From IMG/VR virus record IMGVR_UViG_2541047813_000005, positions 1 to 40,559 of that record: DNA of 40,559 nucleotides. One strand, given 5' to 3'. The notes beneath the pieces were generated by a model. The model made no database searches, was not told where the DNA came from, and saw only the letters and a list, made by a program, of their open reading frames with translations. Source of the DNA: a virus (taxonomy: Duplodnaviria > Heunggongvirae > Uroviricota > Caudoviricetes). Made by a program: the position numbers and the translations under genes. Numbering within the stretch: position 1 is the stretch's first letter; every line of letters begins with the position of its first letter. This document shows, one piece after another, positions 1 through 40,559 of the stretch.

Positions 1-223
1 TCAGCTATCAATGAGAAAATAAAATATAAATAAATCAATGCATTGAAACAAACCACTTAGCAGATACCACGAAAAATACCATGTCTCAATAATAGAGCTG
101 TCTACAGGCTGTTCAGACGAACAATATGGCCGCTCTACTCCTAATAGAGTCCTTAGCTCGGTCACATCACTAATTTCAACATAGATGTGAACAAAATGAG
201 GCATCAACGCACCTATTCAGTTA

Positions 224-1738
224 GTGTATTTGATATCGTATGTGGCAACAAAAAATGGAGTTACAATCTTGAAAGTAAGCGAGTTATCTAGCCAAATTGG
301 CCGACTTTACGGCTTAAACAACATCAACATAATTATGGGCCGAAACGGTGCGGGAAAAAGTCGTTTCCTTCGTGATATCGAACAAACAATCAGCCAGAAC
401 AAGCAGCAATTTTATGTCCGGTATGTAAGTCCAGAGCGAGCAGGATCGTTCAAGCGTGATGGCACCGTCCTCACAAATATGAGCGACAACCCCGAATGGC
501 TGAGGCACACTCGGGCAGTTAATCAGGCAAGCAACTTCAAAGCTGCATCGGCTATGCTATTTCGCGAGGCCGAGACGCTTTACTTACGTCGACTTGCCAA
601 TACTCCGGAAATTCGAACTGATCTAACGCGAAACTTTCAGACAGACCGATTAAGTAAAATTAATCAGCTTCTCACTAACATTTCGCTCGAGATGGGTAAT
701 GTCGATTATGAGTTTCGATCACTTGTAGATGGTCAGATTATTGATCCGGCCCAAATCAGTAGCGGTGAATCGGAAGCGGTTGCATTAGCCGCGGAAATCA
801 TCTATTTCTTCGACACAATAGATCCGGAGAAATTCAACGTACTCCTCCTCGATGAGCCTGATGTACATCTGCACCCCGACCTCCAAGCTAGACTGGGCAA
901 GCTGATAATCAGTATGCTCGACGAATTTAGAACACACGCGAACAGTATTGCCATATGCTTATCCACCCATAGTTCCCCGCTCGTCTGTTCTCTTGCCGCC
1001 TCCCCATATGTATCAATCGGCACGAAGAGCTTTGCAGTGAATGAAATCTCATTGATACCGGCCAGCGATGAACTTCGAAAGATTGCACCATTCTTCGGGC
1101 ACCCCCTATCGCTTTCTCTTAGCGAAGACGCTGCATTAATTTTGGAAGGAGAGGACGACGAACGAGTCTGGCAACAAGCGGCCAGAACATCACAGGGTCG
1201 AATAAAAATCTTTCCCGTACTAGCAGGTAGCGTAGATCAACAGAGTCAACTTGAGGATTTTTGCGTAGACCTCCTTAGTACACTCTATGACAATCCAATC
1301 GCCTTTTCCCTTCGTGATGGCGATGGTGTAATCAACGAGTCGCTTGAACATCGCCTACCTCTTAAACGCTATCGCTTACGATGCTACGCTATCGAAAATG
1401 TTCTTTTGACTGATTCATGCCTTGCAGTAATGAATGTTACATGGGTGGAATTTGTAGACGCAGCCAAAAAATGGGTTGAGGATAATCAAACACACTCCGA
1501 CATAGCGTTGATTGCAAAACTAATGGAATCGAACGACCGATTGCGTCACAAGAAGATCAAGAAAATCCGCCAACTCGTCTGTGCTATTGTTGAGTGTAAA
1601 AAACCTTGGGAGGTAGTAGTTGGACAAGCAATCGGGGCATTGACCAGAGAAGACCTTGAAAACTCGAATATGTTGATCGATTTTCTTGGAGGAGAGATGG
1701 TCAGCGACGTCATCTTCAGGGACGCAATAAACCCATGA
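224..1738 (+). CDS. ABC-type ATPase fused to Toprim/OLD-like nuclease domain (candidate anti-phage defence protein)
   Basis: 504-aa ORF; Walker A 'GRNGAGKS', Walker B/D-loop 'LLLDEPDVHLHP', H-loop-like 'STHSSP'; C-terminal acidic motifs 'ILEGEDDE' and 'LRDGDG' resembling the Toprim Glu and DxD; likely true start TTG at 269 (GGAG 8 nt upstream). Confidence 0.65.
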   Translation: MYLISYVATKNGVTILKVSELSSQIGRLYGLNNINIIMGRNGAGKSRFLRDIEQTISQNKQQFYVRYVSPERAGSFKRDGTVLTNMSDNPEWLRHTRAVNQASNFKAASAMLFREAETLYLRRLANTPEIRTDLTRNFQTDRLSKINQLLTNISLEMGNVDYEFRSLVDGQIIDPAQISSGESEAVALAAEIIYFFDTIDPEKFNVLLLDEPDVHLHPDLQARLGKLIISMLDEFRTHANSIAICLSTHSSPLVCSLAASPYVSIGTKSFAVNEISLIPASDELRKIAPFFGHPLSLSLSEDAALILEGEDDERVWQQAARTSQGRIKIFPVLAGSVDQQSQLEDFCVDLLSTLYDNPIAFSLRDGDGVINESLEHRLPLKRYRLRCYAIENVLLTDSCLAVMNVTWVEFVDAAKKWVEDNQTHSDIALIAKLMESNDRLRHKKIKKIRQLVCAIVECKKPWEVVVGQAIGALTREDLENSNMLIDFLGGEMVSDVIFRDAINP

Positions 1739-1753
1739 GAATGACCTGATACT

Positions 1754-2149
1754 ATGACCACGATTGATCCGCCCTCATGGTATCAGTATTTATTTTATAA
1801 CCCGCCTCTCAATACACCAAGAGATTGCGGTAAAGTGGAGCAGCATGATTACCAGCTTTATCTGGCGATAAATGATATTGAGCATACGAAAACGAAAGCA
1901 ATGTCATCTAAGACCAATAGTATCTGCGAGCAGTTCCATAAAACGATACTGAACGAGTTTTATCAGGTGACGTTCCGCAAAAAGTTATATGATGATCTTG
2001 AAGCATTACAATCGGTTCTTGATGAATGGCGGGTTCACTATAATAATGAGCGAACCCATCAGGGAAAAATGTGCAGTGGCCGAACGCCGATGGAAACGTT
2101 ACTTGATGGAAAGCACATCTGGGATGAGAAAAACTTAAGCCAGATGTAA
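1754..2149 (+). pseudogene. IS transposase C-terminal remnant (DDE/rve integrase-core fragment)
   Basis: 131-aa ORF abutting the ATPase stop; C-terminal 'EWRVHYNNERTHQGKMCSGRTPMETL' matches the conserved tail of rve-type transposases; no N-terminal or DD part present. Confidence 0.55.
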
Positions 2150-2242
2150 TCTGACAGATACCTTTATAAATAGCCGGTAATTGTCAGATCAGGTCTGATC
2201 TAATACAACTTAACTGTGTTATGAGCAATACTGAGGATGGAT

Positions 2243-3013
2243 ATGGAACCAGAGAAATTTGCTGAAACTGCAATAGGATTTACCAAAAGCCCTCTTGGTA
2301 TCATTGCACTCTTTATTGTTCTCGTTTATGGATTTGCCTCTTTCGTCGTTGGCTTTGGTAATGGCTTATCAGAGCATATAGCTCCCCTTATTTATTTCAT
2401 GGTTTTCTTTCCTGTCATTGTGTTTCTTGGCTTTCTCTGGCTTGTTGCGAAACATCATAATAAGCTTTACGGGCCGTCAGATTTCAAAGATGAAAATAAT
2501 TTTTTAAGAGCGCAAATAGCTACAGCAGCATCATTGACCGCCGCCACAGCAAAACAGCCTGAAAATAGTGCAGGGGTCACTGAAAGCCAACTGCGAAAAA
2601 TCGTCAACGTTGTATCCAATGCAAAACGGCAGAGTAAGCATGAAAAATGGCGAAATCGTATTTTATGGGTGGATGATCGACCAGAAAATAATGTTTACGA
2701 AAGACAGGCATTTGAGGCACAGGGAATAGAGTTCGCTTTAGCTCTTTCAACTGACGAAGCCTTAGAATTGTTAAAAACAAATAAGTTTGCAGCTATTATT
2801 TCGGATATGGATCGCAAAGAAGGGGCGCAAGAAGGTTATGTCTTACTAGAAAGATTACGCGCAATGGGAGACAAAACTCCTTTTATGATCTATGCGTCCT
2901 CAGATCTACCAGAGCACAAGAGAATGGCGAGAGAAAGAGGTGCAATTGGCTCCACTAATCGAGCAGAAGAACTCTTTCAAATTGTCATGGGTGCGATTAC
3001 CAATGGCTCATAA
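2243..3013 (+). CDS. Membrane protein with two N-terminal TM helices and C-terminal CheY-like receiver (REC)-like domain
   Basis: ORF 2237..3013; ATG at 2243 preceded by GAGGA; hydrophobic segments 'LGIIALFIVLVYGFASFVVGFG' and 'LIYFMVFFPVIVFLGFLWLV'; REC-like pattern 'ILWVDD', 'AAIISDMDR', 'FMIYASSD'; AT-rich codon usage. Confidence 0.55.
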   Translation: MEPEKFAETAIGFTKSPLGIIALFIVLVYGFASFVVGFGNGLSEHIAPLIYFMVFFPVIVFLGFLWLVAKHHNKLYGPSDFKDENNFLRAQIATAASLTAATAKQPENSAGVTESQLRKIVNVVSNAKRQSKHEKWRNRILWVDDRPENNVYERQAFEAQGIEFALALSTDEALELLKTNKFAAIISDMDRKEGAQEGYVLLERLRAMGDKTPFMIYASSDLPEHKRMARERGAIGSTNRAEELFQIVMGAITNGS

Positions 3014-3230
3014 CAAAGCCATTAAATTCGCCCCCTACGGCTACGGTTGCCGGGCGCTCACAACGGCCAGTATCTCATTTGTCGATTTGATCGATCTCAT
3101 TGTAAGCACTTCCGGCTAGACTGTTTTGGAATACCGCCATTTTGTTGGTAATGGCTTTTATCTTTAGGCCATAGCCGATGTTATAGAGTTACGGCCTTAA
3201 AAATAGAAGTCATACACTCAATGAAAAACC

Positions 3231-3263
3231 AATAAAAAATGCCAGTCAGCAAACTGACTGGCA
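3231..3263 (-). terminator. Rho-independent terminator ending the leftward lysis operon
   Basis: Hairpin gccagtcag/ctgactggc (3241..3263) followed on the minus strand by a U-run (plus-strand A-run 3231..3240). Confidence 0.55.
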
Positions 3264-3409
3264 TTAAAGTTAGTTGGAAAGGCTTAATTTACTATTTATA
3301 GCCAGTCCTACTCCCACTCAATTATTTACGACAACCATAACCAATTGAGTGATAACACTTTTCCAAGCCTCAACTTTTCCCGTACCGTTTTATATACCGT
3401 CACCGGAAA

Positions 3410-5222: not shown

Positions 5223-5378
5223 AAAGACCGCCGATTACTGTGTATAATCCACCCCATTGGTTATTGGGTTTATAATACACATAAACCATATATGAATTAA
5301 ATTTTATGAGTCCACCTATCTCTAAATTACCCGTGAGGTGATATTGTTTCGTATCGCTATTTCCTACAGTATGGATAT

Positions 5379-8078: not shown

Positions 8079-8182
8079 GTTAAATCTCCAGATAGTCGCA
8101 GCACCCGTTGCGCCGCATATCTGGTTATTCTATTACCTGAAAAACCAGATATGGATAGCAAGACTGCAAATACGAATAGATA

Positions 8183-8197
8183 TTACCTTTCGGGTAA
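8183..8197. promoter_or_regulatory. Palindromic operator-like site ATTACC-TTTCG-GGTAAT
   Basis: Perfect TTACC-N5-GGTAA dyad in the intergenic region between the tailspike start and the small plus-strand ORF. Confidence 0.45.
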
Positions 8198-8272
8198 TTT
8201 GCAAAACGTGCTGGATAGCCAATAAATTATTTGGTACTGTTTATTAATACAGTTATTACATGGAGAGATAAG

Positions 8273-8530
8273 ATGCAGCGGTATCACTATCCACTGGAAG
8301 AAGGATTTACCGAAAGGATTCACACGCCGGGAGGCGTCAGGTCACTGGTGGAGGGATCGCACTTGATGAAATTACTCCGGGATCTCGATAAGGATGGATT
8401 TAATGTCGATGGCCCACTTGCCGAACTGACTGCACTGATTAACTACGTCACCAGCTCACAGATGTCTATGCAGGATCTGCAAACACATCTCGACTATTGT
8501 GCCGAACAACTACGAAAACAAACCACATAA
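8273..8530 (+). CDS. Hypothetical small protein (85 aa), opposite strand to late genes
   Basis: ORF 8231..8530; ATG 8273 with GGAG 7 nt upstream; operator-like site upstream; no recognisable motif. Confidence 0.4.
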   Translation: MQRYHYPLEEGFTERIHTPGGVRSLVEGSHLMKLLRDLDKDGFNVDGPLAELTALINYVTSSQMSMQDLQTHLDYCAEQLRKQTT

Positions 8531-8552
8531 AGAAAAGGCCGCGAAAGCGGCC
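8528..8552 (-). terminator. Hairpin terminator after small membrane-protein gene
   Basis: ggccgcgaaagcggcc hairpin (8537..8552) followed on the minus strand by UUUUCU. Confidence 0.5.
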
Positions 8553-8561
8553 TGTGACATG

Positions 8562-8858
8562 TCACGTCCCTTTTCTGAATGATAGCCATTCGAAAAATGA
8601 TGACATTCCACCGCAGACAATAGCAAAGATGATCCCACCAAAGAAGAGAAGGCCAGCCTGCCACCACTCCCACCGCCATACATCCACAGCGCCAACCATA
8701 CCAACAATCGCTCCAACAAATGGAATATAGCTCACGATGAAAGCAATGGGGGCTGCAATTATCCAGTGCAATCCCCACCATGATTCAAGCCCAGCCATAA
8801 TTGCTGCCAACTGAAAAAGACCAACGACGATATAAACAATGAATCCTATAGCTTGCAT
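8562..8858 (-). CDS. Small integral membrane protein (hypothetical)
   Basis: 98 aa, almost entirely hydrophobic with Trp-rich segments; stop codon embedded in GTGACATGTCAC palindrome. Confidence 0.5.
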   Translation of the reverse strand: MQAIGFIVYIVVGLFQLAAIMAGLESWWGLHWIIAAPIAFIVSYIPFVGAIVGMVGAVDVWRWEWWQAGLLFFGGIIFAIVCGGMSSFFEWLSFRKGT

Positions 8859-25765: not shown

Positions 25766-26584
25766 ATGAAAAACTTCAAGGTAATTAGCATGTTTGAATC
25801 GTTTAAAGAGCTGTTTTTATCTACTGCCAATACTGCCGTGAATCGAGCCAAAAACCCTGTGCTTGGTGCTTTTGTTATGTCCTGGTGCGCCTTCAACTGG
25901 AAATCAATTCTTTATCTATTTTTTAGCAAATCAAACATAATAGATAAAATTTCATATATCTCAGATAACAGCACATGGAAAACTGTTATGTTTTATCCAT
26001 GCTTATCTGTAATTGCTATCTGCTGCCTATTACCATGGGTAAACAATATCATTAACGTATGGCAAGCAAAGCCTCTTGATAATAATGACTCAATCGAAAA
26101 TCACCTGAAGGCAAGAAAAATCCAGCGTGAAACCAGACTGCAGAGGTTATTGGCTAAAAAAGATGTTACATACGACAAAGTTAAGACTGGCGCGGAAAAA
26201 GACATCCAAGAGATGAAAGAAGAGATTATTCGATCAAAGAATAGTATGGGGGAATTGACTGCCGAGTTGAAAGCTAAAGATGACGAATTGAGATCCGCCA
26301 GTGCTCAGTTAGCAGCTCTAAATCATTCATTAAAAGAGATATCGGAAACTCTGGGAAGAATGAATGAGGCATATAAGACCCTCCAAAATGATTTCGACGA
26401 ATACAAACTCAAATACCCTGAAAAATCTCAAATAAAAAGCCTTGCACTTGGCAACGGCCAAACAATTAGCAACTTTTTGGAGCAACACAACTTATCCGGA
26501 TTAAAATCTGGTAAGCCAAACGTTTTTAATAACTTTGGTGTTCTATCTGGATTATCAGGTTTCGATGATAAAAATAAAGACTAA
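25766..26584 (+). CDS. Cargo (moron) protein: N-terminal hydrophobic/membrane region plus long coiled coil; function unknown, candidate exclusion/abortive-infection factor
   Basis: ORF 25694..26584, probable start ATG 25766; AT-rich codon usage unlike flanking late genes; opposite strand; stop overlaps terL stop convergently. Confidence 0.5.
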   Translation: MKNFKVISMFESFKELFLSTANTAVNRAKNPVLGAFVMSWCAFNWKSILYLFFSKSNIIDKISYISDNSTWKTVMFYPCLSVIAICCLLPWVNNIINVWQAKPLDNNDSIENHLKARKIQRETRLQRLLAKKDVTYDKVKTGAEKDIQEMKEEIIRSKNSMGELTAELKAKDDELRSASAQLAALNHSLKEISETLGRMNEAYKTLQNDFDEYKLKYPEKSQIKSLALGNGQTISNFLEQHNLSGLKSGKPNVFNNFGVLSGLSGFDDKNKD

Positions 26585-28056
26585 GCATATGGATCGTACT
26601 CGGTAAGCGACTTGCCTTGCTGGTTCTGCTGCCCGGGAATTCGCAGACGCTTCGACACAGGGAACGCAAACGTCAGCAGTAGCGCATCGCCTTTACCAGG
26701 AGAACGCCCAAGCCGCTCTTTGATATCTTCCTTCGGTTCGATAACGATTTTACCGTCCACGCGAACTTTGTACTCTGCCGCCGACAGGTCGTCCGCTGTT
26801 TCCTGGTCATCCAGCATGCCGCCCAGCCTCAGCCATGTCTTGCATGAGTTGAACATCTCCCCACGCTTGTTGAGCATCTGCGGGTCAGTAGACGCGCCAC
26901 CGAACGGAACAAGTTGCCATGTGCGCCCCCAACCGTCACCGATTGACTTCAGCCCGGTACCGTAACCGAAGTCGATGAACACCGCGTCAGCCTGATACTT
27001 GTCTTCAAAGTCAGCGATACGCTTTGCCATAATCAGATCGTCAGTGGTCTTGTTGCCGGTCCACAGCACCTTACTGTGCAGCCCCTGCCGCAGGTATATC
27101 ACAGCGTCATCAACGCCGGAGTATGCCGGGTCAACGCCGATTATCACCGGAGCATGTGCAACCTGCGCAGCGGTTACCACCCGTTTCATTGCCTCGTCAG
27201 TAAGGCCGGTAGGGATAAACTGCAATTCAGATGCATCCGGGAATATACCGCGCACACGGATTTTAACGAAGTCGCTGTCTTCCCCGTAGTCATCAACCCA
27301 TTTCTGCAACTGCTGTTTGTTAGTGCCTTCCACCGTCCGGCTGTCAATCTGCGCAGTTTTCCAGCGGTGTTTATATTTGCGGAAACATTCGCGAAAACGC
27401 CCGGTGTTACGTGTAGGGTTTCCGAACGCCACCCAAATAATCTCAGTGTCTTCGTCCGTAAGCGCACCCTCGGCAACTTCCCACACCAGATCCGCAATGT
27501 TCGACGCTTCATCAAACACCACGATGATGCGTTTGCGCTCGTTGTGTAGTCCGGCGAATGCCTCGGTGTTGTGCTCAGACCAGGGTATTGCGTCAGCCCG
27601 CCACCGCTTGTCGTGCCCTAGGTCATTGCTGTACATCGCGGTAGCGGTACAGGTAAACCAGTCTTTCGTGATAGCAAGGTTCGACCACTTGATAATTTCC
27701 GGCCAGGTCTTCGTTCGTAGCTGGTTGTCGGTGTTGGCGGTCACCACGACCTTACAATCCTCGCAAGTGGACATGCCCCAGTTGATCAGCATTGAGATGA
27801 ATGCGGATTTACCAATACCGTGACCAGAAGCGCGTGCCAGCATAAGCGGCTGATAGCGCGTCTCTGGATTCTGCAGGTGATCACGTATCTCTCGGAACGC
27901 ATCGGCCTGCCACTGACGTGGACCGGTGGCATGTGCCAGTTCAGTCCCCTCTTCCCCCCACGGGAACGCATAGAGGGCATAACCAAGCGGATCGTGAGTG
28001 AACCCTGCAATATCCTCGATCAACTGCTCTTCAGGAGATAACGCTGTATCTTTCAC
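26581..28056 (-). CDS. Terminase large subunit
   Basis: 491 aa; ATPase-like N-terminal region and nuclease-like C-terminal region; overlaps terS stop by 4 nt. Confidence 0.8.
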   Translation of the reverse strand: MKDTALSPEEQLIEDIAGFTHDPLGYALYAFPWGEEGTELAHATGPRQWQADAFREIRDHLQNPETRYQPLMLARASGHGIGKSAFISMLINWGMSTCEDCKVVVTANTDNQLRTKTWPEIIKWSNLAITKDWFTCTATAMYSNDLGHDKRWRADAIPWSEHNTEAFAGLHNERKRIIVVFDEASNIADLVWEVAEGALTDEDTEIIWVAFGNPTRNTGRFRECFRKYKHRWKTAQIDSRTVEGTNKQQLQKWVDDYGEDSDFVKIRVRGIFPDASELQFIPTGLTDEAMKRVVTAAQVAHAPVIIGVDPAYSGVDDAVIYLRQGLHSKVLWTGNKTTDDLIMAKRIADFEDKYQADAVFIDFGYGTGLKSIGDGWGRTWQLVPFGGASTDPQMLNKRGEMFNSCKTWLRLGGMLDDQETADDLSAAEYKVRVDGKIVIEPKEDIKERLGRSPGKGDALLLTFAFPVSKRLRIPGQQNQQGKSLTEYDPYA

Positions 28057-28649
28057 TGATTACCATCCTGACGTTCTTTGAGTCGCTTCCTGGCTGCTGC
28101 TATGCGATCAGCAATTGTCACATTCACATTAACATCCAGACGTTCTTTGAACGCGTTGACATCAACATGCTTACCAATCAGTTCGAGGTTCTTCACCTTG
28201 TCAGGCCATTTAATTTTTTTGAGGATTGTCTCTATCGAATCCTCGTTCATGTTCATGATGGTCGATGACAGATCAAAGCCACTAAGCGTAGTGCGCCAGA
28301 TTTTCGGCCACTCGCGGATTGGCTTAAGGCTCCCATCGTCGTTGAGGATGTCGATCACGTCCATCTGGTCGATCTCCACCAGGCGCATGAGAACGTAATC
28401 AGCACTGACGCGCATTCGTTTGTTGCGCTCCTCCATCAACTCGGCAATCCGTTTTTGAATGCGTTCATCGCGCATCATGACACTGGCTTTAACTGCCGCT
28501 GTATTTGGGGAGAATCCTGCGTTAATCGCTGCCTGAGTCTGGTTTTCAGGCGTTTTGATGTATGACTGGCAATAAGCCTCCTGCATTGCTGTTAGTGGCT
28601 TAAATTGCGTTGATTTGCGTTTATAGGTTTTAGGTTCAGCAGGCATCAT
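28053..28649 (-). CDS. Terminase small subunit
   Basis: ORF 28053..28745; likely start at internal Met (28649); 'AINAGFSPNTAAVKASVMMRD' resembles terminase small-subunit DNA-binding region. Confidence 0.65.
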   Translation of the reverse strand: MMPAEPKTYKRKSTQFKPLTAMQEAYCQSYIKTPENQTQAAINAGFSPNTAAVKASVMMRDERIQKRIAELMEERNKRMRVSADYVLMRLVEIDQMDVIDILNDDGSLKPIREWPKIWRTTLSGFDLSSTIMNMNEDSIETILKKIKWPDKVKNLELIGKHVDVNAFKERLDVNVNVTIADRIAAARKRLKERQDGNQ

Positions 28650-28758
28650 AACCACCGTGGTAATAGTTACCGTTGTGGTAATAGTACCATGCAAAATAAA
28701 GCCGCCATAGTTGGCGGCAGTATTCAAAACCATCAAATTCATCATGCATAATCTACTC

Positions 28759-28770
28759 GTGACATGTCAC
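28759..28770. repeat. 12-bp perfect palindrome GTGACATGTCAC (copy 2)
   Basis: Identical to 8554..8565; overlaps the stop codon of the upstream minus-strand gene in the same register. Confidence 0.6.
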
Positions 28771-29114
28771 ACTATTAATTTCGTTTCATGCCAGCCTTTA
28801 GTCACCCAGCATTGCGAGTCACCATTACACGGGCATGAATTAACTGGAACTCTCTCGCCGCACTTACCGCAACGTTTTCTGCTGATCGATTTTATACGCC
28901 CGCGCACGCGTGCATCATCCTGGCGGATCAGTAACGCTATATACTCACCAAATTCGTAAGGCGCACGCCCGGGGCGACGCGTGGCACAGTTACGCTCCAG
29001 CATTTCAATTTCCTGAGCATCAAGCACAATTTCCAGCTTACGCACACCAGATGCAGCTTGTCTGGCTCTCTGAGCGGCTTTGCGCTCTGCGGGGGATTTA
29101 GCCACGAATCGCAC
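28767..29114 (-). CDS. Small Cys-rich (zinc-ribbon-like) protein, possible late-gene regulator
   Basis: 115 aa; C-terminal 'CGKCGERVPVNSCPCNGDSQC'; immediately upstream of terS. Confidence 0.45.
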   Translation of the reverse strand: MRFVAKSPAERKAAQRARQAASGVRKLEIVLDAQEIEMLERNCATRRPGRAPYEFGEYIALLIRQDDARVRGRIKSISRKRCGKCGERVPVNSCPCNGDSQCWVTKGWHETKLIV

Positions 29115-29219: not shown

Positions 29220-30035
29220 TCACTTCACCTCCTGCGGCGGTTCTGGTAACGGCATCCAGTACAAGGCGTTCCCTAACCACGATAAAGTGCCGTCGCTCAA
29301 CTCCACGTATTCCCCTTGTACCTGTCCTGCCATATACTCGCCGTGCTTTGAATAAATTAAAATCCAATCATCTTGAGCGGGCATTCGCTCACTACAGCTT
29401 ATCCAACCATCCGGAGTTACCGGAGAGTTGCCATTCACAAGGTCAGCTCGAACATATAGTGTGTCATCATGGTGCTGATTGTGGCTGCACCACGTTAATT
29501 CGCTTAACTCGCCATCTTCTGGCCATACTCCAGCTGTTTGCAGCCAGATATGGGCTGGCGCATCTTGGCAAGGTGTATTAACTGGCAACTTGTAAGTTTG
29601 GCTTACAGGTTGGCTACCCTGAAGCATGGCAGCGTGGCAGGCATCCTCAACGTTCTTCACTGCATCTGCGCAGTAGTTATAGCGATTGCATTCCACTAAT
29701 TTCTGCTTGAGGTTTTCAATTGCTAACTCGATTTCATCCGGCACTACCGGCTCTGGTTGGATAGTGACGTTGGCAAAGGCAGCACGCAAACCGGCCTTAA
29801 TTTCCTCTACTTCATCAGCGCCTAGCGATGAATCTGACAATGCGTGATGGAATGCGTAAGCCATGTCGTCGTTGATTTCTACAGGCACACTATCAGCCTT
29901 GCGGCGCTCCTGTAGCTCGCGCAGAGCCGCTGCAACATAATGACTATTGTGCTGGTCAGCCCACAGAATGAGCCGAATCAACGTTGCATTTGAAACGTAT
30001 TCGTCTGTTAGTTTGCTATTGGTAAAAGTGGTCAT
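29220..30035 (-). CDS. DUF551-like phage protein (hypothetical)
   Basis: 271 aa; C-terminal 'WMPLPEPP' motif recalled as typical of DUF551 proteins of enterobacterial prophages. Confidence 0.5.
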   Translation of the reverse strand: MTTFTNSKLTDEYVSNATLIRLILWADQHNSHYVAAALRELQERRKADSVPVEINDDMAYAFHHALSDSSLGADEVEEIKAGLRAAFANVTIQPEPVVPDEIELAIENLKQKLVECNRYNYCADAVKNVEDACHAAMLQGSQPVSQTYKLPVNTPCQDAPAHIWLQTAGVWPEDGELSELTWCSHNQHHDDTLYVRADLVNGNSPVTPDGWISCSERMPAQDDWILIYSKHGEYMAGQVQGEYVELSDGTLSWLGNALYWMPLPEPPQEVK

Positions 30036-30397
30036 GCTGTAGCCCCTTCTTGATATTTTTCAAACCAGAACACAACCGGGTCAGATTTCATTTCAACCAA
30101 TCCCATACGAACCAGCGCCTTGCCTTTCCCGGACGCAAGGAATTCACGACGACCATCACTGATAATTCGCCGATAATCTTCCAGGCTACTGCAATGCTTG
30201 TGCAGATTGCATGGGTGGCATGCCGGAACCATGTTGGATATATCGTCACGATCCTGGTGAAGCATATTTCCAGCAAAACGAATGACCGGTTTTACGTGGT
30301 CTGCGTGCCACTTTTCGCCAAGTTCGCAGCCGCAATAAGCACAGCGACCGCCGAACTTCATGCGTAATTCTGCACGTTGTTTTTTCGTCAGTGCCAT
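30032..30397 (-). CDS. HNH endonuclease
   Basis: ORF 30032..30487; likely start at Met 30397 (AAGGAAAA RBS); 'CAYCGC...HADHVKP...N...CHPCN' HNH motif. Confidence 0.7.
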   Translation of the reverse strand: MALTKKQRAELRMKFGGRCAYCGCELGEKWHADHVKPVIRFAGNMLHQDRDDISNMVPACHPCNLHKHCSSLEDYRRIISDGRREFLASGKGKALVRMGLVEMKSDPVVFWFEKYQEGATA

Positions 30398-30398
30398 T

Positions 30399-30659
30399 TC
30401 AGTTTTCCTTATATGGATTAATTTTATTGTGCAGTGTATTGAACGACGCCCATACCACGTCGTTATACAATTCAATAACTGGCTCAATTATTTTCCCGAT
30501 TCCCCATACCAGAATTAACGGGGATATCGGTATCATCAATACGATAAACAGAATGAGAAACAGGAATTCTGTCGTTCTACTCTTTCGCGGATATTCTTTT
30601 CTGAATAATGTCGGCACATCACTCTCCTTTGATGCGAATGCCAGCGGCACGGGAATCAT
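30399..30659 (-). CDS. Small membrane protein (hypothetical)
   Basis: 86-aa ORF with TM segment 'FLFLILFIVLMIPISPLILVWGIG'; its stop lies 1 nt from the HNH start; weak RBS. Confidence 0.3.
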   Translation of the reverse strand: MIPVPLAFASKESDVPTLFRKEYPRKSRTTEFLFLILFIVLMIPISPLILVWGIGKIIEPVIELYNDVVWASFNTLHNKINPYKEN

Positions 30660-32163: not shown

Positions 32164-32166
32164 GAT

Positions 32167-32181
32167 TTACCTCTAAGGTAA
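32167..32181. promoter_or_regulatory. Operator-like dyad TTACC-TCTAA-GGTAA abutting start codon of the DUF1064-like gene
   Basis: On the minus strand reads TTACCTTAGAGGTAA-ATC-ATG. Confidence 0.45.
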
Positions 32182-32228
32182 TTAAAAACCACATAAGACA
32201 CGAAATCAATAGAGTTTAGAATATTTTA

Positions 32229-32243
32229 TTACCTGATAGGTAA
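32229..32243. promoter_or_regulatory. Operator-like dyad ATTACC-TGATA-GGTAAT
   Basis: Perfect dyad in the 117-bp gap between the P-like and DUF1064-like genes. Confidence 0.45.
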
Positions 32244-32280
32244 TTGTTGAGACGTAAAAAAATGCGCTATCGCGCTGGTA

Positions 32281-34493: not shown

Positions 34494-34556
34494 TCACCCA
34501 TAAGGTAACAAAAATCAAGGATAGTTACCCATGAGGTGCATTTACCTGTTGGGTAA
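34494..34556. promoter_or_regulatory. Immunity-region operator cluster (three TTACC-N5-GGTAA-type dyads) with divergent promoters
   Basis: Sites 34494..34508 (TCACC-cataa-GGTAA), 34525..34539 (TTACC-catga-GGTGC), 34542..34556 (TTACC-tgttg-GGTAA) between the cro-like and repressor-like starts. Confidence 0.5.
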
Positions 34557-34611
34557 TATTGCTTTAAATTGAATCATCTACTGATTCATATATGAGGCGA
34601 TTTTCCAGAAA

Positions 34612-35196
34612 ATGAAAAGTATCCAGGACGTCCGCAGGCAAAATCTCAACGACTTGATCGACCGTGAATTCAATGGTGTTCAGACGCGGATGGCAGAAAA
34701 ACTTGGAACTCAGGCAAATCTGGTAAACCGCTGGGCTCTTGGCAAGAAGGTTATCGGCGACCAGGTTGCACGAAAAATTGAAGCTGCCGCCAATAAACCC
34801 CGTAACTGGCTTGATATCGATCGCTCGCTTTCTCAGGAAGGTTTTCAGCCTGTCGGCCCAAGCGACATTGGTCAGCTGGCGGCTCACAACCTGGAACGCT
34901 GGATGAGCGAAAGCCGCGACCTTTCAACGCAGGGAAAACTTCACCGCGCATCCGGCGTCGCCCAGGTGACAATCAGCCGCCTGTTAAACAATGAGGTCAG
35001 CGTTTCCATTTCCACCCTGGAGAATGTTGCATCCGCATTCGGGCGTCATGGCTATGAATTACTGATTCACCCGCACGACCCTGCGACTATCAACTATGAC
35101 CGCTCGCGCTACGCATTGTTACCCGAAACCGAGAAAGCAAAGATCGAAAGTTACATTGAATTTGTCATCAACCAGAACGAAAAAAACAAACAATAA
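34612..35196 (+). CDS. Repressor-like DNA-binding protein with two HTH-like regions (candidate phage repressor)
   Basis: 194 aa; 'QTRMAEKLGTQANLVNRW' and 'ASGVAQVTISRLLNNE' HTH-like segments; no obvious S24 peptidase motif. Confidence 0.55.
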   Translation: MKSIQDVRRQNLNDLIDREFNGVQTRMAEKLGTQANLVNRWALGKKVIGDQVARKIEAAANKPRNWLDIDRSLSQEGFQPVGPSDIGQLAAHNLERWMSESRDLSTQGKLHRASGVAQVTISRLLNNEVSVSISTLENVASAFGRHGYELLIHPHDPATINYDRSRYALLPETEKAKIESYIEFVINQNEKNKQ

Positions 35197-35240: not shown

Positions 35241-35253
35241 ATTGCCTGTTAGA

Positions 35254-35331
35254 TTACCTTTTGGGTAATTTTTTTTAACTCATATCTATTGACATCAAAC
35301 CAGATACGCATAATTATTACCTCAACGGTAA
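35254..35331 (+). promoter_or_regulatory. Early-left promoter with two flanking operator dyads
   Basis: Dyads at 35254..35268 (ATTACC-ttttg-GGTAAT) and 35317..35331 (TTACC-tcaac-GGTAA); TTGACA 35289..35294, 16-nt spacer, TAATTA 35311..35316. Confidence 0.5.
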
Positions 35332-35350
35332 CAGACCGAGGTAACAAGTT

Positions 35351-38171: not shown

Positions 38172-38471
38172 GTGAGAAAGTTAAGCCGACTTGAAAAATA
38201 TCACATGAATAAGGTTTCAATGCGCAGTCAGTCAAAGATTGTCGCCGTTACTCCTGCGGCGATAGAGATCGAAAAACGCGCGATTGAAAGAGAGAAAAAA
38301 GGGCAGTTCCGCATTGCCGCTCACCTTTGGCTTCAGTGTATGGATGTTGCTTCTGGTGATGTTGAACGTGCAAGGATCGCGGTTCGCAGGGACCAATGTA
38401 TCACAAAAGGTAACGGCCTTCGCCGTGGCGACTATAGCGGCATAGGATGTTGTGGGGTGGTTTATGACTAA
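38172..38471 (+). CDS. Hypothetical protein
   Basis: 99-aa ORF; start codon uncertain; overlaps methylase start. Confidence 0.35.
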   Translation: MRKLSRLEKYHMNKVSMRSQSKIVAVTPAAIEIEKRAIEREKKGQFRIAAHLWLQCMDVASGDVERARIAVRRDQCITKGNGLRRGDYSGIGCCGVVYD

Positions 38472-39114
38472 GAAATACACACTAATCTATGCAGATCCAC
38501 CCTGGGTATACCGGGACAAAGCCGCAGATGGTAATCGCGGTGCCGGTTTTAAATATCCGGTTATGAGTGTGCTGGATATCTGCCGCCTTCCTGTGTGGGA
38601 TTTGGCCGATGAAAACTGTCTGTTGGCCATGTGGTGGGTGCCAACACAACCACTCGAAGCACTAAAAGTTGTTGAAGCCTGGGGATTCCGTCTGATGACC
38701 ATGAAGGGATTCACGTGGATAAAATGTGGTAGTCGACAACCAGATAAACTGGTTATGGGTATGGGTCACATGACTCGCGCCAATAGTGAAGATTGCCTGT
38801 TTGCAGTAAAGGGAAAACTACCTCCGCGCATTAATGCAGGGATCGTTCAGTCATTTACCGCACCGCGGCTTGAGCATTCAAGAAAACCAGATGTCGTTCG
38901 TGAAAAACTTGTGCAATTGTTAGGCGATGTTTCTCGCATTGAACTGTTCGCCCGCCAGTCGTCTCATGGCTTCGATGTTTGGGGTAATCAGTGCGAAGAC
39001 CCGGCAGTGCAACTACACCCTGGATACGCGTTGGATATTGCCAGATTAACAAATGCATTCAGCAATGCTCCGCTGTCACCAACAGACAACCAGGGGCGGG
39101 AGCGTGCAGCATGA
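38464..39114 (+). CDS. MT-A70 family DNA N6-adenine methyltransferase
   Basis: ORF 38452..39114; 'LIYADPPW' (DPPW catalytic motif) near N-terminus. Confidence 0.75.
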   Translation: MTKKYTLIYADPPWVYRDKAADGNRGAGFKYPVMSVLDICRLPVWDLADENCLLAMWWVPTQPLEALKVVEAWGFRLMTMKGFTWIKCGSRQPDKLVMGMGHMTRANSEDCLFAVKGKLPPRINAGIVQSFTAPRLEHSRKPDVVREKLVQLLGDVSRIELFARQSSHGFDVWGNQCEDPAVQLHPGYALDIARLTNAFSNAPLSPTDNQGRERAA

Positions 39115-39308: not shown

Positions 39309-40559
39309 CTATTCCCCCGCCATCCACTTCTCAAACTTCGACGGGGAGAACGGAATCAGATCCGTATGCTCCCCGTTAATCCAGGAATCAATCATATCGG
39401 ACCACTGCTGCAACATGTAGGCGCGCTGCCTGGCGTATTCCGCTTTGTTATATACGGCGCGCACACCTTTCTGCTCATGTGCCAGAGCCTTTTCAATCCA
39501 GTCTGAAGGATAACCAGCCTCATGCAACAACGTACTGGCTGTACGGCGCATATCGTGTACGGTGAAGTCCTGAATATGCTCACCATCTTCATTTATTATT
39601 TTCACCGTTCTGTCGATCAGAGAGTTCAGCGCGGCATTAGATAATGGCTTCCTGAAATTGTAACGACCAGGAACCAGATATTCACTTCCACCAGCGCACA
39701 TCTGCAACCCGACCAATATATCCTGAGCCTGTTTAGGCAGGTAAATAACATGCGCCCGGCTTCCCTTCATGCGGTCTGAAGGAATTGTCCATGTCCATTT
39801 TTTAAAATCTATTTCATCCCACGTTGCATTGGTGAATTCGCCCTTACGAACCATAGTGATAAGCACCAGTTTTAAAGCCATTTTCATAGTGCCCATAGCA
39901 CCAATGGCATCCAACGTGCGGAAGAACAGGCCAATTTCTTCTGGTGTCAGTGTTCGCTCTCGTGGTTTAAATATGGCGATAGACGAAGGTTTAATGTCAG
40001 CCGCAGGATTAAACAAACCATGACCACGGTCATTGGCGTGACGGTATACGCTGCTGATGATCTCCCTGGCCTGTACTGCTGTTGCCCGACCACCGCGTTC
40101 GACAATCCGGTCACACAAATCACGAACCATCGATGTGGTAATTTCAGCCATCATTTTGTTGCCAAGAACCGGAAGTATGTCACGGTCGATCACCGCCTGC
40201 TTCATTGCGCGGGTACTGTCAGCCAGGATGACGTGTTTCATATAACTGTCGGTATGTACCGCAAACGTCTCGGCACCACGAATCTTTTTGATACCGTCAC
40301 GTTTAGCCGCAGCCGGCGACTGGCCTGCTTTAAGCAGCTTCTTTGCAGCAATCAGTTCTTCTCGAGCTTCTGCTAGACTGATACCGTCACGCCCATACTG
40401 CCCGATTACCAGTGTTTCGCGGCGACCGTTGATACGGTAGTCATAGCGAAACGAGACCGTGCCTGACGTAAGCACAGCTACATACAGCCCGTCACGATCG
40501 GAGACCTTGTACAGTTTGTCCTGCGGCTTGAGGTTTTTTAATTTTGTATCGGTAAGCAC
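39309..40559 (-). CDS. int: Tyrosine-type phage integrase (start at or just beyond window edge)
   Basis: 416 aa; N-terminus 'LTDTKLKNLKPQDKLYKVSDRDGLYVAV' typical of phage integrase arm-binding domain; C-terminal 'HDMRRT...AGY' region; first codon GTG at 40557..40559. Confidence 0.85.
   Translation of the reverse strand: MLTDTKLKNLKPQDKLYKVSDRDGLYVAVLTSGTVSFRYDYRINGRRETLVIGQYGRDGISLAEAREELIAAKKLLKAGQSPAAAKRDGIKKIRGAETFAVHTDSYMKHVILADSTRAMKQAVIDRDILPVLGNKMMAEITTSMVRDLCDRIVERGGRATAVQAREIISSVYRHANDRGHGLFNPAADIKPSSIAIFKPRERTLTPEEIGLFFRTLDAIGAMGTMKMALKLVLITMVRKGEFTNATWDEIDFKKWTWTIPSDRMKGSRAHVIYLPKQAQDILVGLQMCAGGSEYLVPGRYNFRKPLSNAALNSLIDRTVKIINEDGEHIQDFTVHDMRRTASTLLHEAGYPSDWIEKALAHEQKGVRAVYNKAEYARQRAYMLQQWSDMIDSWINGEHTDLIPFSPSKFEKWMAGE

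Follow-up and report, generated by a model that had tools for sequence, protein, structure and literature searches.

The pairing of a small phage regulator with a palindromic operator is already well known, and several described systems of this and neighboring kinds bear on the locus considered here. Among them are the ribbon-helix-helix repressors, including Arc and Mnt of the P22 immI region, CopG, and omega, whose operators are composed of 7-bp WATCACW heptads. In the lambdoid Q/QBE/tR' system, a regulator gene, a DNA site, a close terminator and the late genes follow one another in that order. Boundary cassettes occur around variable phage genes, as in the lambdoid boundary sequences and the T4-type PeSL cassettes. 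Finally, MatP, the organizer of the E. coli Ter macrodomain, binds matS. The matS pattern is 13 bp long, GTGAC[AG]N[CT]GTCAC (PMC3603311). Here, we describe a 12-bp palindrome, GTGACATGTCAC, in a prophage family that is common in E. coli and whose late-gene control is poorly understood.

The DNA analyzed is a stretch of 40,559 nucleotides (hereafter, the window), which BLAST against phage records places with the epsilon15/phiV10-like podoviruses, genus Uetakevirus. It is a prophage, with genes for an integrase and an HTH repressor, and its packaging and structural genes lie on the minus strand (Table 1). Published relatives are integrated at the 3′ end of guaA (PMC9782041). The left end of the window, about 3.4 kb (1-3400), is non-phage DNA, with ORFs for an AAA_15 / AbiEii-like ATPase (224-1738), an IS integrase-core fragment (1754-2149) and a response-regulator-like protein (2237-3013). 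The region around the palindrome copy between the Cys-rich gene and terS, designated site A, is found in 637 of 5,426 complete E. coli genomes.

Table 1. Positions of the features discussed, in window coordinates.
Feature	Position	Strand	Remarks
Palindrome GTGACATGTCAC, site A	28759..28770	.	holds the TGA stop of the Cys-rich gene; exact 12-mer kept in 75/80 IMG/VR relatives
Second exact GTGACATGTCAC copy, site C	8554..8565	.	holds the TGA stop of the 98-aa late ORF; abuts an intrinsic terminator
One-mismatch copy GTGCCATGTCAC	23079..23090	.	within an ORF; identical coding sequence in phiV10 at 5306
Cys-rich gene	28767..29105	-	112 aa; phrog_536, E 2.5e-54; epsilon15 gp49 / N15 gp46 family
Non-coding remnant, 3′ end of 70-aa gene (phrog_1541)	28719..28758	-	last 40 nt left
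Intrinsic-terminator-like hairpin GCCGCCAACTATGGCGGC, then TTTATTTTG	28692..28718	-	end of early-right operon
Candidate terS promoter/operator region	28648..28689	-	extended -10-like TGGTACTAT (28689-28681) over two repressor-operator-like sites
ATTACC-N5-GGTAAT-like operators upstream of terS	28682-28666 and 28664-28648	-	consensus from epsilon15 'repressor' protein_bind features
terS, corrected start	28053..28649	-	ATGATGCC; second ATG 28646 = epsilon15/Tyrion start
terL	26581-28056	-	
Cargo ORF at the terL junction	25694-26584	+	296 aa, phrog_4780
Last structural-operon ORF	8562..8858	-	98 aa, phrog_3075; stop codon in site C
Terminator stem AGGCCGCTTTCGCGGCCT, then TTTCTTTATG	8536..8553	-	strong terminator; closes the structural operon immediately after site C
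Convergent ORF, epsilon15 gp19 type	8231..8530	+	phrog_450; faces site C across the terminator
ATTACC-N5-GGTAAT, 0-1 mismatch	8182-8198 (perfect), 25129-25145, 28648-28682, 32166-32244 (incl. 32228), 34541-34557, 35253-35332		
HNH endonuclease gene	30032-30487	-	two genes upstream of the Cys-rich gene
HTH repressor	34612-35196	+	
Integrase	39309-40559	-	

The palindrome lies exactly where the first-pass annotation had placed it, and the second copy implied by its numbering there (copy 2) proved to be site C. GTGACATGTCAC is the only perfect palindrome of at least 10 bp that is present twice in the window, and 100 dinucleotide-preserving shuffles of the window contained no exact copy. We estimate that approximately 10 positions in 40.6 kb are 12-bp palindromes, with a chance of about 0.01 that any two are identical. 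The palindrome is almost certainly a real element under selection. The one-mismatch copy is probably due to chance and probably lies outside the system; three matches with up to two mismatches arise in 23 of 100 shuffles. Folded as RNA, the palindrome gives a hairpin of only -1.2 kcal/mol on its own and -2.9 kcal/mol with its flanks, not better than shuffles. It is therefore not itself an intrinsic terminator, and the terminators of this region are separate, neighboring hairpins.

At site A, the Cys-rich gene ends ...ATA GTG TGA, and its stop codon comprises bases 2-4 of the palindrome (28767-28769, minus strand). Thus, the palindrome is not wholly intergenic, as had been described, nor does it lie in a 21-nt gap before terS: that figure rests on the longest ORF, and the real distance is approximately 117 nt. 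The longest ORF (start 28745, ATGATG) encodes 230 aa and is over-extended. Among 80 close relatives, 1-nt indels (GATGGTTTTG, GATGGGTTTTG, GATGTGTTTTG) disrupt the 28745 frame; matches to terS begin at residue 51 (Pfam) or 35 (PHROG) of the longest ORF; and the start of terS in both epsilon15 and Tyrion is the ATG equivalent to window position 28646. For these reasons, the ATGATG at 28745 is not the terS start. Read along the minus strand, the order of elements is the Cys-rich stop codon with the palindrome, the remnant of the phrog_1541 gene, the terminator, the promoter region with its operators, and terS. Sequence changes right after ...GTCACGA in 26 of the 80 relatives, and the 70-aa phrog_1541 gene is intact at this position in 26 of 80. 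The stem-loop equivalent to the window's hairpin is annotated as a terminator in the epsilon15 record.

These corrections bear on how terS is controlled. Its promoter region lies about 80-90 nt downstream of the palindrome, past the intrinsic terminator, and TGGTACTAT is, on our reading of the bases, a candidate extended -10 element of that promoter. The epsilon15 record annotates one ATTACC-N5-GGTAAT repressor site in front of terS. In the window, sites of this type precede terS, the portal operon and the divergent region of the tailspike and gp19-like genes, and they occur also in the immunity region, a distribution suggestive of direct repression of each late operon by the prophage repressor. 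We considered whether the palindrome is itself an operator of that repressor and rejected this, since the epsilon15 repressor sites are of the ATTACC-N5-GGTAAT type and are separately present in the window. The two kinds of site are alike in being palindromic and repeated before late operons of these phages, but they differ in sequence and position, and only the repressor sites are annotated in epsilon15. It had also been proposed that the palindrome could belong to a late-promoter activator site. This proposal does not hold up well, because the terS promoter lies beyond a terminator and has its own repressor operators, and because the spacing differs between phages. By our counts, the palindrome lies at approximately -90 relative to the nearest promoter-like element in the window, -74 in epsilon15, -66 in N15 and phiKO2, and -48 in a further prophage locus (L090), so that neither a fixed promoter geometry nor a classical activator position is supported. 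In addition, the gene-site pair is unconnected with terS in other clades.

The palindrome recurs in the relatives of the window phage. Epsilon15, Tyrion and SPN1S each carry exactly three perfect copies of GTGACATGTCAC, at corresponding junctions in all of them: where the gp49-type gene ends (site A), just past terL and a hairpin (site B), and where the structural operon ends, just before its terminator (site C). In phiV10, the copies at B and C are perfect and the one at A, again at the gene end, has a single mismatch, GTGACATGTTAC; this C-to-T variant is also seen in 2 of the 80 IMG/VR relatives. The phiV10 record (NC_007804.2) was opened inside the palindrome, between ...GTGTGA and CATGTTAC..., that is, after the stop codon of the last gene. 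Overall, these phages have two to three copies per genome, spaced 2-20 kb apart, and the palindrome is unannotated in the epsilon15 and phiV10 records. On one strand, all three sites present the same series of stop codon, palindrome and, 0-40 nt further on, terminator. When sites B and C are aligned, no block is invariant except the 12-mer and the terminator stems, and the flanks differ between phages; at site C, for instance, the 12-mer occupies the equivalent place in phiV10, epsilon15, Tyrion and SPN1S while the upstream flanks differ. In relatives, mosaicism or cargo is concentrated at the site C junction, which coincides with a breakpoint in BLAST matches. Site B is seen in 52 of 80 IMG/VR relatives and has seven unrelated families of right flank, which are the ends of cargo genes on the opposite strand. 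In most relatives, the terL junction holds a hairpin, a palindrome copy (the third) and a cargo gene, of which at least seven different ones occur, which makes this place a cargo hot spot. The window is without site B, and its own cargo ORF overlaps the terL stop codon. All three junctions are also places where variable cargo genes are inserted.

The Cys-rich gene that ends in site A probably starts at the GTG at 29105, although the mechanically called ORF starts at 29114. Its homologues are mostly 112 aa long, with invariant residues that include four Cys; basic residues are conserved as well, the pattern resembles strand-helix-helix, and the N-terminus is arginine-rich. An AF2 model of the monomer (pLDDT 68) has helices at residues 30-43 and 52-75, with residues 19-29 ahead of them unstructured. 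The protein has no Pfam match. A CopG-like model of NCBIfam, the 'LexA regulated protein' NF008671, matches four of seven family members weakly (best E 0.0015), comparisons with CopG and Arc are not significant, and structure searches returned no significant match. The protein is possibly a dimer that combines a ribbon-helix-helix domain with a zinc ribbon. In SPN1S, the basic AKSPAERKAAQRARQ segment of the homologue (38348-38656) is replaced by an unrelated N-terminus, MATTTTRRQN..., and the three perfect sites are kept. We had considered SPN1S as a natural knock-out, because the protein looked N-terminally truncated in tblastn; the gene is intact, and so the case is uninformative. An HNH gene lies near the Cys-rich gene in the window (Table 1), and in Pantoea phage AH07 an HNH gene directly adjoins the Cys-rich homologue.

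Homologues of phrog_536 occur in epsilon15-like, N15-like, P2-like, ZF40-like and Vibrio phages, and they are accompanied by GTGAC-NN-GTCAC in myo-, sipho- and podoviruses alike; the hosts seen are Enterobacterales, Vibrio or Aeromonas. We scanned loci in one genome per bacterial species and obtained 38, with proteins of 35-79% identity. The motif starts 1 nt before the TGA of the gene in 20 of the 38 and lies within 14 nt after the stop codon in five more. In three Serratia and Symbiopectobacterium prophages (L099, L103, L104), the palindrome is absent and a LexA-box-like TACTGTTTTTATATACAG directly follows the gene. Eleven gene-carrying genomes, 455 kb in total, contain 27 GTGAC-NN-GTCAC sites, compared with 0.43 expected; P22, which has no annotated copy of the gene, contains zero. 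The half-sites are conserved and the central dinucleotide is specific to the clade, with AT prevailing, CT seen in Pantoea, GC in one group of Yersinia and TG in the N15-like elements. Prophages of Yersinia and Providencia (L089, L112, L117, L119) have copies in tandem, spaced 32-33 bp apart.

Individual phages illustrate both the constancy of the pairing and the variety of its settings. ZF40, a Pectobacterium myovirus whose protein is 66% identical, has three copies of TGTGACATGTCACA, including one that follows the gene by 5 nt. In AH07, the TGA of the gene overlaps GTGACCTGTCAC, here in the early-left operon and beside an excisionase gene. N15 gp46 (34% identity) and phiKO2 gp45 (40%) end in the TGA of GTGACTGGTCAC. 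Both of these phages have three GTGAC-TG/CA-GTCAC sites at equivalent places (28550, 33237 and 39269 in N15; 32783, 37663 and 43540 in the phiKO2 record): one on the stop codon of the gene, one inside the replicase gene repA, and one in front of a promoter-like element of the icd/ant anti-immunity operon, 24 nt upstream of its -35. They are not the annotated partition sites (GTGCGACCACGGTCGCAC). In Vibrio phage K233 (30% identity), there are again three sites, two of them exactly 19 nt before a start codon, which in one case is that of terS. In all, 31 of 60 sites lie within 45 nt of a terminator-like hairpin, versus 14% of random positions. We nonetheless discarded terminator adjacency as a universal rule, as it holds in Uetakeviruses and fails in other clades; the contexts in N15, ZF40 and the Vibrio phage indicate that the family is not confined to terminators.

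The Cys-rich gene takes its TGA stop from the palindrome, so that gene and site are inherited as a single unit. From the conserved half-sites, the clade-specific center, the several copies per genome and the fusion to a single protein family, we infer a dimeric reader encoded by the linked gene. The adjacent Cys-rich protein, already named as a candidate binder in the first-pass annotation, is thus a probable reader of the palindrome: the motif tracks its homologues in diverse phages, usually on the stop codon of the gene, and extra copies occur elsewhere. Going one step further, we lean toward the view that the palindrome is an operator-like DNA site of this protein that acts at operon junctions, a proposal drawn from comparative sequence data.

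Other explanations of the element have to be weighed. The palindrome might be a Q-like late switch, in which it would be the QBE-like DNA loading site of an antiterminator from the gene just upstream. Its left half, GTGACA, would then double as a -35 element, and the counterpart of tR' would be the terminator that lies 40 nt downstream. The succession of regulator gene, site, terminator and terS indeed resembles that of lambda, or of gene 23, P_late/qut and t_late in the annotation of P22; the Cys4 motif of the protein matches the Cys-rich motif of the lambdoid system; a promoter scan calls a sigma70-like GTGACA-18-CATGAT on the late strand; and we read GTGACA-17-TAAATT at that place in epsilon15 and Tyrion. 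We nevertheless think a Q-like switch improbable. The promoter match is weak (9/12), shuffles produce such matches at least as often, the 26 of 80 relatives with the extra gene do not retain it, and the transcript implied in epsilon15 would start at the terminator stem itself. Moreover, past the terminator terS is served by a repressor-controlled promoter region of its own, and neither Pfam, NCBIfam nor PDB-sequence searches match the Cys-rich protein to Q proteins, nor is there any other match to Q families. The lambdoid arrangement differs further in that no convincing promoter or pause element is found here, there are three sites per genome, and N15, phiKO2 and AH07 carry a phrog_536 family member together with a separate annotated Q-like protein. 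That the palindrome is instead the pac or cos site of the downstream terminase, or a packaging recognition element as had been suggested, is very improbable indeed. Site A does lie upstream of terS, the K233 copy lies 19 nt before the ATG of terS, and the phiV10 reference record opens inside the palindrome. However, that record simply begins after the stop codon of its last gene, and each genome holds three copies, of which two are far from terS. N15 has both motif and gene, yet its cohesive ends are annotated at the other end of the genome, and no copy lies near the terminase genes in N15, in a P2-like phage or in ZF40. The multiple copies, and the presence of the gene-site pair in phages with cohesive ends or unrelated terminases, argue against a packaging signal.

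The remaining alternatives would dispense with a phage-encoded reader of DNA. A host factor, such as a MatP-like or other enterobacterial DNA-binding protein, could read the site, in which case it would be linked to the gene only by common descent of the module. matS has exactly these half-sites, GTGAC and GTCAC, both elements are present as few dispersed copies, and all hosts are Enterobacterales, Vibrio or Aeromonas, a range that overlaps the MatP-bearing bacteria. On the other hand, the spacer is 2 nt rather than the 3 nt of matS, and the site is fused to one phage gene across unrelated backbones. The center changes with the clade of the phage protein and is constant over all three sites in N15 and in phiKO2, which fits a phage-encoded reader better than one host protein. 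Overall, we regard a host reader as unlikely. Identity with matS and MatP in particular was rejected on the spacing (12 versus 13 bp) and for want of protein homology: a regex scan of the window and seven related genomes found zero 13-bp matS sites, and the Cys-rich protein has no detectable homology to MatP (Pfam PF06303, PF17414). CRP, FNR, LexA and SlmA-type sites were likewise set aside, as their spacing or inner bases presumably do not match the palindrome. It is also conceivable, though quite unlikely, that the element acts as RNA, as a small hairpin at mRNA 3′ ends that serves as a nut-like antitermination signal or in processing or stability. The constant order of stop codon, palindrome and terminator at sites A, B and C and the arginine-rich N-terminus of the protein would suit such a role. 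But the hairpin is of very low stability, pairing of the conserved C5 and G8 across a 2-nt loop is impossible, and site 3 of N15 and phiKO2 is oppositely oriented relative to transcription; conserved half-sites around a free center are instead characteristic of DNA sites that dimers read. Lastly, the palindrome might be a passive joint at module boundaries, used in cargo swaps by recombination and without a trans-acting reader. Like the boundary cassettes mentioned above, it is a short conserved element beside a stem-loop where variable cargo genes are exchanged, and mosaic junctions do fall at its edge (26 of 80 relatives at site A, the seven right-flank families in 52 loci at site B, and the breakpoint at site C). 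Yet 12 bp is short for homologous exchange, and a joint leaves unexplained both the exact conservation across epsilon15-like, ZF40, N15-like and Vibrio phages with unrelated flanks and the tandem copies 33 bp apart and the copies inside genes. Here, in contrast to those cassettes, the palindrome is tied to one protein family in unrelated backbones, and we give the passive joint little credence.

We return to the preferred reading, an operator-like site of the Cys-rich protein. Once the prophage is induced, expression of the early-right operon would supply the protein, and one or two dimers of it would bind GTGAC-NN-GTCAC (with AT at the center in the epsilon15-like clade). The protein would thus come to occupy the site at the end of its own gene as well as those at the ends of the terminase and structural operons. 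Bound there, it may act as a roadblock or insulator, or else as an anchor that alters read-through at the adjacent terminators, and in this way modulate transcription across the junctions; negative feedback on the protein's own transcript is possible. A role in junction transcription is favored because all three Uetakevirus sites adjoin terminators at junctions of convergent or independent units. Taken by itself, control of the junctions is a tentative suggestion, and we hold it with considerable doubt.

A bolder proposal is that the Cys-rich protein and its three sites constitute a chromosome-boundary system encoded by the phage, orthogonal to host MatP/matS but analogous to it and with one base less in the spacer, that bridges or insulates the ends of the early, terminase and structural operons. 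We consider this a long shot. If it were true, the system could control terminator read-through or keep host condensin or MatP off the phage DNA, and the sites would mark the slots where defense and conversion cargo genes are swapped.

The 12-mer was not found in the literature that we searched, a search that many subscription papers fell outside, and papers on ZX5, epsilon15 packaging and prophage motifs contain nothing on the palindrome or gp49. The pair of phrog_536 protein and site, as it occurs in many unrelated temperate phages, has apparently never been described before. What is unusual about it is the fusion to a stop codon, the conservation across morphotypes, the regular three copies, and the matS half-sites with a shorter spacer. 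For a 'hypothetical protein' family without a Pfam entry, the analysis offers a concrete hypothesis, with a defined protein, a 12-bp site and two positions in the window. Should the binding prove true, it would represent a new regulator-operator pair of unusual design, the site being fused to its own gene at the stop codon, and it would provide a handle on how operons are kept separate and on why cargo builds up at exactly these junctions. Independently of the palindrome, the analysis corrects the start of terS and places a repressor-controlled promoter region in front of it.

The ribbon-helix-helix repressors are among the known systems nearest in kind. As with those, a small early protein is associated here with a short symmetric site, and the features of a short symmetric operator are found: conserved GTGAC and GTCAC half-sites, a variable center and tandem copies. 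The site can be read as two inverted heptads, TGTGACA/TGTCACA, and the occasional tandems lie approximately three helical turns apart. The location, too, recalls the immI layout of P22, beside antirepressor or cargo regions of the late operon. There are differences as well. The Cys-rich protein is only a candidate for the ribbon-helix-helix fold and has an extra C-terminal Cys4 module. Its site is fused to the 3′ end of the regulator gene rather than placed at the promoter of that gene, and the other copies stand at the ends of operons, away from obvious promoters.
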